NCBI RefSeq assembly: GCF_003334355.1 | Contig: NZ_QOWP01000050.1 | Reading direction: 5' to 3' (one strand) | DNA: 15,734 nt | Source of the DNA: Escherichia coli | GTDB taxonomy: Bacteria; Pseudomonadota; Gammaproteobacteria; Enterobacterales; Enterobacteriaceae | In this document: piece by piece, positions 13,019 through 13,055 of the stretch | Layout: each line of letters opens with the position of its first letter | How positions within the stretch are numbered: the first letter of the stretch is position 1 | Notes under the pieces: generated by a model | What the model was told of the DNA's origin: nothing | Database searches by the model: none | What the model saw: only the letters and a program-made list of their open reading frames with translations | Program-made: the position numbers and the translations under genes

Positions 13019-13055
13019 CTACTGGGGGGTAGTATCAGGTACTGGGGGGGAGTAG
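13019..13055. promoter_or_regulatory. Tandem RcnR operator sites (TACT-G6/7-AGTA) in the rcnR-rcnA divergent promoter region
   Basis: TACTGGGGGGTAGTA (13020..13034) and TACTGGGGGGGAGTA (13040..13054) are visible in the intergenic region; this G-tract inverted-repeat architecture is the described RcnR recognition site. Confidence 0.75.

Follow-up and report, generated by a model that had tools for sequence, protein, structure and literature searches.

The window analysed here, a 15,734-nucleotide stretch of Escherichia coli DNA, carries the divergently transcribed genes rcnR and rcnA, with rcnB downstream of rcnA, and two near-identical G-rich sites in the intergenic region between the start codons of rcnR (12971, minus strand) and rcnA (13092, plus strand). 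The coordinates of these features are collected in Table 1. In the annotation of E. coli K-12 MG1655 the same stretch reads thiD, thiM, rcnR, rcnA, rcnB, yehA and yehB. The rcnR open reading frame scored 197 bits with the NCBIfam equivalog for RcnR (NF011613; cut-off 138), and the predicted protein contains H3, C35, H60 and H64 together with a RASK motif at residue 14. According to a recent review, this H-C-H-H (W-X-Y-Z) fingerprint sets RcnR apart from CsoR and FrmR (PMC11672702). Hence, by both the NF011613 match and the fingerprint, the regulator adjacent to the sites is a true RcnR. The rcnA open reading frame matched the nickel/cobalt efflux transporter family NF007454 with 559 bits. For RcnB, no NCBIfam match was obtained at an E-value of ≤0.001. 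The list of open reading frames stretches rcnB upstream to 172 aa (13955–14473, plus strand); the annotated RcnB is 112 aa long, and its N-terminus, MTIKNKMLLGALLL, is signal-peptide-like.

Between positions 12459 and 15657 there was no mismatch to the MG1655 genome (NC_000913.3), and the 120-bp rcnR-rcnA intergenic region was an exact match, so that the sites in the window are the K-12 sequence; MG1655 is the strain in which RcnR has been characterised. The strain from which the window derives is not itself a K-12 strain: over the 5 kb compared it differs by 72 substitutions, none of them within 12459–15657 and most in thiD and thiM. An Rfam search of the window returned no RNA family over the sites. 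Its sole match was a TPP riboswitch (RF00059, 71 bits, 12511–12607, minus strand), located upstream of thiM and directly beside the 3' end of rcnR.

Table 1 Genes, operator sites and putative promoter elements in the rcnR-rcnA region of the window.
Feature	Position	Strand	Basis or remark
rcnR, Ni(II)/Co(II)-sensing repressor, CsoR/RcnR family, 90 aa	12699..12971	-	NF011613; b2105 in MG1655
Putative extended -10 of the rcnR promoter, TGcTATGAT	13002..13010	-	7 nt before mapped start
RcnR operator site 1, TACT-G6-T-AGTA, rcnR-proximal	13020..13034	+	Exact match; literature assignment
Putative -10-like TAGTAT of the minor rcnA start	13030..13035	+	Overlaps right arm of site 1; precedes start at 13044
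Spacer TCAGG between sites 1 and 2, 5 nt	13035..13039	.	Sequence not conserved
RcnR operator site 2, TACT-G7-AGTA, rcnA-proximal	13040..13054	+	Exact match
Putative -10 TAGAAT of the main rcnA promoter	13053..13058	+	Ends 6 nt before start at 13065; TA common to right arm of site 2
rcnA, Ni/Co efflux transporter with His-rich loop, 274 aa, regulated target	13092..13916	+	NF007454; b2106
rcnB (yohN), periplasmic protein in Ni/Co export, downstream of rcnA	14135..14473	+	MG1655 b2107 mapping

Read on the plus strand, site 1 is TACTGGGGGGTAGTA and site 2 is TACTGGGGGGGAGTA. Both agree with the motif TACT-G6-N-AGTA without a mismatch, and they are offset by 20 bp, both start-to-start and centre-to-centre. 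A preliminary description of this DNA had reported two near-identical sites at this distance between divergent rcnR and rcnA, with G runs of 6 and 7, and on these points it was confirmed from the sequence; its interval of 13019–13055 is wider than the two sites by a single base at either end. When both strands of all 15,734 bases were searched for TACTGGGGGGNAGTA, allowing for up to two mismatches, sites 1 and 2 were the only matches. The chance expectation was 0.02 matches per window, and two matches were reached in 0 of 200 dinucleotide shuffles, which speaks against a chance origin of the repeats. Their G-richness alone would suit a purely structural feature lacking a specific protein partner, such as a G-quadruplex or a promoter spacer. 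An intramolecular G-quadruplex was rejected, since the intergenic region holds two G runs where four, close together on the same strand, would be needed. G/C runs of ≥6 in the whole window were limited to the two operator tracts and one C6 run in the yehA coding region (15213–15218).

Next, the motif was compared across species with a DNA pattern scan of 100,044 species genomes (TACTGGGGG-N1-4-AGTA-N3-8-TACTGGGGG). The tandem motif was found in 91 stretches, mostly from Enterobacterales and in some cases from Vibrio, Shewanella and Chromobacterium; 80 of the 91 were examined, and the 79 loci with a complete motif were analysed. Operators that diverge from the pattern fall outside this set, apart from the plasmid loci described below, and because the motif itself was the search pattern, bases that the pattern demands give circular evidence of conservation; the independent evidence lies in the flanking genes and in the positions that the pattern leaves free. 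Each of the 79 loci was flanked by an RcnR homologue (58–100% identity), encoded on the left on the opposite strand, by an RcnA homologue on the right, or by both. If a neighbour was missing, the available DNA usually stopped near the motif; in three Shewanella loci RcnA was absent from several kilobases of flank. This linkage to RcnR and/or RcnA homologues, together with the assignment of the motif to RcnR in the literature, also argues against a G-rich feature without a protein partner. With the low chance expectation, the idea that the repeats are accidental or purely structural is effectively refuted, and we assign it a negligible probability.

The arrangement of the two sites was likewise constant. 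The G6-T site always lay on the rcnR side. Site 1 had G6 followed by T in 75 loci, and site 2 had G7 in 72 and always ended in AGTA. The gap between the TACT and AGTA arms was 7 bp at site 1 in 78 loci and at site 2 in 74. The spacer between the sites occurred as 36 distinct sequences in the 79 loci and measured 5 nt in 62 of them and 6 nt in the other 17. Near-invariant sites between a spacer and flanks that diverge are the footprint expected of a protein-binding site. A tblastn search of plasmids with RcnR added three informative loci. One of these, on an IncHI2 plasmid whose RcnR is 92% identical, retained both 15-mers and the 20-bp offset exactly, with different spacer and flanks. Another, on a Ralstonia solanacearum megaplasmid (RcnR 62% identical), has one TACT-A-G6-AGTA between divergent rcnR and an rcnA/nickel transporter gene; in this single site the odd base precedes the G tract, whereas in E. 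coli site 1 it follows the tract. Across the set, from Escherichia to Vibrio, Shewanella and Chromobacterium, the array kept its two sites, its orientation and an arm gap of 7 bp, and some clades had one or three sites at 20–21 bp spacing.

The positions of the sites were then related to transcription starts published in a genome-wide supplementary table (Kim et al, 2012), for which coordinates were converted and checked against the printed 51-mers. The rcnR start lies at window position 12994 on the minus strand (23-nt leader; upstream 51-mer 13044..12994), the main rcnA start at 13065 on the plus strand (27-nt leader; upstream 51-mer 13015–13065) and a minor rcnA start at 13044 on the plus strand, with the low read counts of 11, 25 and 12, respectively. 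In rcnR promoter coordinates, site 1 extends from about −26 to −40 and so includes the −35 zone of rcnR. In 76 non-redundant loci, the best-conserved part of the left flank was the CA at −11/−10 relative to site 1, that is, TG on the minus strand. On the other side, the +1 to +4 flank after site 2 was GAAT or another variant compatible with TAnnnT, and about 90% of loci had T at +4. Based on the published starts, and supported by this flank conservation, we infer that the sites overlap promoter elements of both rcnA and rcnR and that a −10-like hexamer falls on the right arm of each site (Table 1). A generic promoter scan did not call these hexamers. It proposed instead a plus-strand −10 element TATTAT at 13085–13090, one base short of the rcnA ATG, as well as a minus-strand promoter inside the rcnR coding sequence; both were rejected because they fit neither the start codons nor the starts in the published table.

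The two sites almost certainly constitute the tandem type-1 operator that serves RcnR, a repressor responding to Ni(II) and Co(II). The sequence, the identity of the genes, the identity to K-12, the comparative conservation and the overlap with published transcription starts were observed here, and binding, stoichiometry and metal response are taken from the literature. According to papers that cite the original biochemical study (Iwig & Chivers, 2009, J Mol Biol 393:514), apo-RcnR binds TACT-G6-N-AGTA, which is present twice in the rcnR-rcnA intergenic region, with a 1:1 stoichiometry of one RcnR tetramer per site. Repression of both rcnA and rcnR through one common operator is credited by one of these papers to a later report (Blaha et al, 2011, Biochimie 93:434). 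Control of rcnA and rcnB by RcnR is also documented (PMC7105576, PMC7055735), and the operator has been reused as a portable part of a cobalt-inducible circuit, the native rcnA promoter being weak (PMC7105576). Since these papers describe the same sites, the interpretation as an RcnR operator pair matches published knowledge. The preliminary description had put forward just this interpretation, with TACT/AGTA arms around each G tract, and it is supported by the MG1655 identity, the literature, the comparative data and the transcription starts. None of the analyses run on the window and the comparative loci gave a result that contradicts it.

In the published model, metal-free RcnR binds with one tetramer on each TACT-G6-N-AGTA site, contacting the inverted-repeat TACT/AGTA arms and reading the shape of the unbroken G tract. 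Loading of RcnR with Ni(II) or Co(II) lowers its affinity for DNA, and rcnA(B) and rcnR are derepressed. Judging from the mapped starts, the −10 elements of the divergent promoters would stand back to back with 45 bp between them, a stretch taken up by the two sites. The main rcnA −10 element TAGAAT would share bases with the right arm of site 2, and the −10-like hexamer of the minor start with that of site 1, with site 1 probably also covering the −35 zone of rcnR. With the sites placed on elements of both promoters, bound RcnR would block RNA polymerase at both, two tetramers being predicted to exclude the enzyme by occlusion.

The preliminary description had also pointed to the G runs as potential slipped-strand points of length variation and had suggested that their lengths be compared across E. 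coli genomes. Exact matches to variant queries were therefore counted among 5,426 complete E. coli genomes, 5,362 of which had the intergenic region. Genome totals were 5133–5334 across the variant queries, and all counts are minimum values, since any genome with an additional substitution was excluded. The site 2 tract was G7 in 4,430 genomes (exact 55-bp core), G8 in 98 and G6 in 119. At site 1, G6 was the majority form; G7 was found in 32 genomes, using a query with a longer left flank, and G5 in 35, a count probably lowered by low-complexity masking. In all, among roughly 5,100–5,300 complete genomes, alleles differing by one G from the reference made up about 1.3% at site 1 and about 4.2% at site 2. 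The C6 run in the yehA coding sequence served as control, with C6 in the majority, C7 in 3 of 2,411 genomes and C5 in 7 of 3,344, i.e., 0.1–0.2% for each of +1 and −1. The operator tracts thus varied more than this control (Fisher p from 3e-3 to 2e-18), which understates the neutral rate because frameshifts in yehA are selected against. C5 frameshift alleles of yehA occurred in two C600 assemblies and the WF5-5-T1/T2 strains, and yehA may be a pseudogene in that lineage.

These counts bear on a further explanation, namely that the G6 and G7 runs, besides lying in RcnR sites, are slipped-strand contingency tracts, where a run longer or shorter by one G would switch the expression of rcnA and rcnR, or retune it, between lineages. 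Alleles of this kind do exist, they are commoner than at the yehA run, and they were present in 5 of 79 species representatives. Moreover, the G8 form of site 2 was common to three separately deposited O121 genomes, which suggests that at least some length alleles are inherited rather than assembly errors. Against a contingency tract, about 95% or more of the genomes kept the reference lengths, no change beyond ±1 G was seen with the variant queries in the complete E. coli genomes, and the 7-bp arm gap conserved across species is a pattern of purifying selection. Many of the variant genomes are long-read assemblies, which are prone to homopolymer errors, one of the G8 genomes also has rcnA annotated as frameshifted, and the excess over the coding control has to be read with the understated neutral rate in mind. 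Runs of 6–7 are also shorter than typical phase-variable tracts, and the wide heterogeneity of tract length among close strains by which such tracts are recognised was not found. With the alleles rare and the arm gap strongly conserved, a phase switch is highly improbable. We conclude that the tracts are mildly mutable operator elements held at a fixed length by selection, with no resemblance to a contingency switch. The earlier suggestion of slippage points is thus correct in part, in that one-base alleles occur above the coding background but are rare.

Other variants of the operator were encountered in single E. coli genomes. The wastewater-sludge isolate WW2 (NZ_CP081881.1) has a 23-bp tandem duplication, TACTGGGGGGGAGTAGAATCAGG, equivalent to window positions 13040–13062, which gives three RcnR sites and a second TAGAAT. 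In strain 097H6 (NZ_CP187781.1), owing to a 5-bp deletion (window 13050–13054), site 2 has lost its right AGTA arm and the putative rcnA −10 element its TA, and there is also a C to A change at the equivalent of 13058. ETEC4085 (NZ_CP122634.1) carries an IS5-family insertion at about window position 13084, a few bases upstream of the expected rcnA start codon, which cuts the start position of rcnA off from its operator and promoter. Substitutions were also seen at 13039 and 13058, outside both sites.

The site 2 tract is located upstream of the main rcnA −10 element, so a change in its length would alter both the arm spacing and the promoter spacing. It is conceivable, if rather unlikely, that the one-base alleles, such as G8 in O121, and the rearrangements in WW2 and 097H6 are heritable cis-regulatory variants that might shift the set-point of RcnR or the basal expression of rcnA. 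If this were true, operator variants might confer lineage-specific nickel/cobalt tolerance. The one-base alleles could in addition be used as natural variants for the effect of G-tract length on recognition by RcnR. The operator itself is already known, ordinary and well understood. As it has been biochemically characterised since 2009 and is in use in cobalt-inducible expression systems, it carries little weight as a discovery, and what is added here is the comparative picture of the array, its orientation and its arm gap across genera.

Compared with known systems, the closest is the tandem type-1 operator of E. coli K-12 itself, from which the window shows no difference in the operator, the 120-bp intergenic region or rcnR-rcnA-rcnB. 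The type 2 operators of CsoR-type regulators, e.g., Streptomyces lividans CsoR, consist of two short G/C tracts with 2–4 bases between them, have about 11 bp between the repeats and take two tetramers per site, whereas each RcnR site has one unbroken tract, a 7-bp gap and, according to the literature, one tetramer. At the third locus from the plasmid search, an element upstream of an frmR homologue on an Acinetobacter plasmid, TACTATAGTACCCTATAGTA, represents the formaldehyde-sensing paralogue FrmR. Like the RcnR sites, it has TACT/AGTA arms around a G/C tract, but it has a short tract (C3) and longer arms, and both the effector and the regulated genes (adhC, fghA) are different.

Of the 79 species loci, 20 had a third site-like element on the rcnR side of the array, placed exactly 21 bp left of site 1. 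In Enterobacter, Klebsiella and Lelliottia (RcnR about 62% identical) this element is TACTCCCCC[T/G]GAGTA, with an inverted tract (C5), and in a group of seven loci that includes Kosakonia it is AACTGGGGGGGAGTT, with degenerate arms. The sequences thus suggest three-site arrays with a periodicity of 20–21 bp in both groups. These putative arrays contain the same two sites in the same orientation to rcnR and rcnA as in the window, where the position of the third element is instead occupied by the putative −10 element of rcnR.
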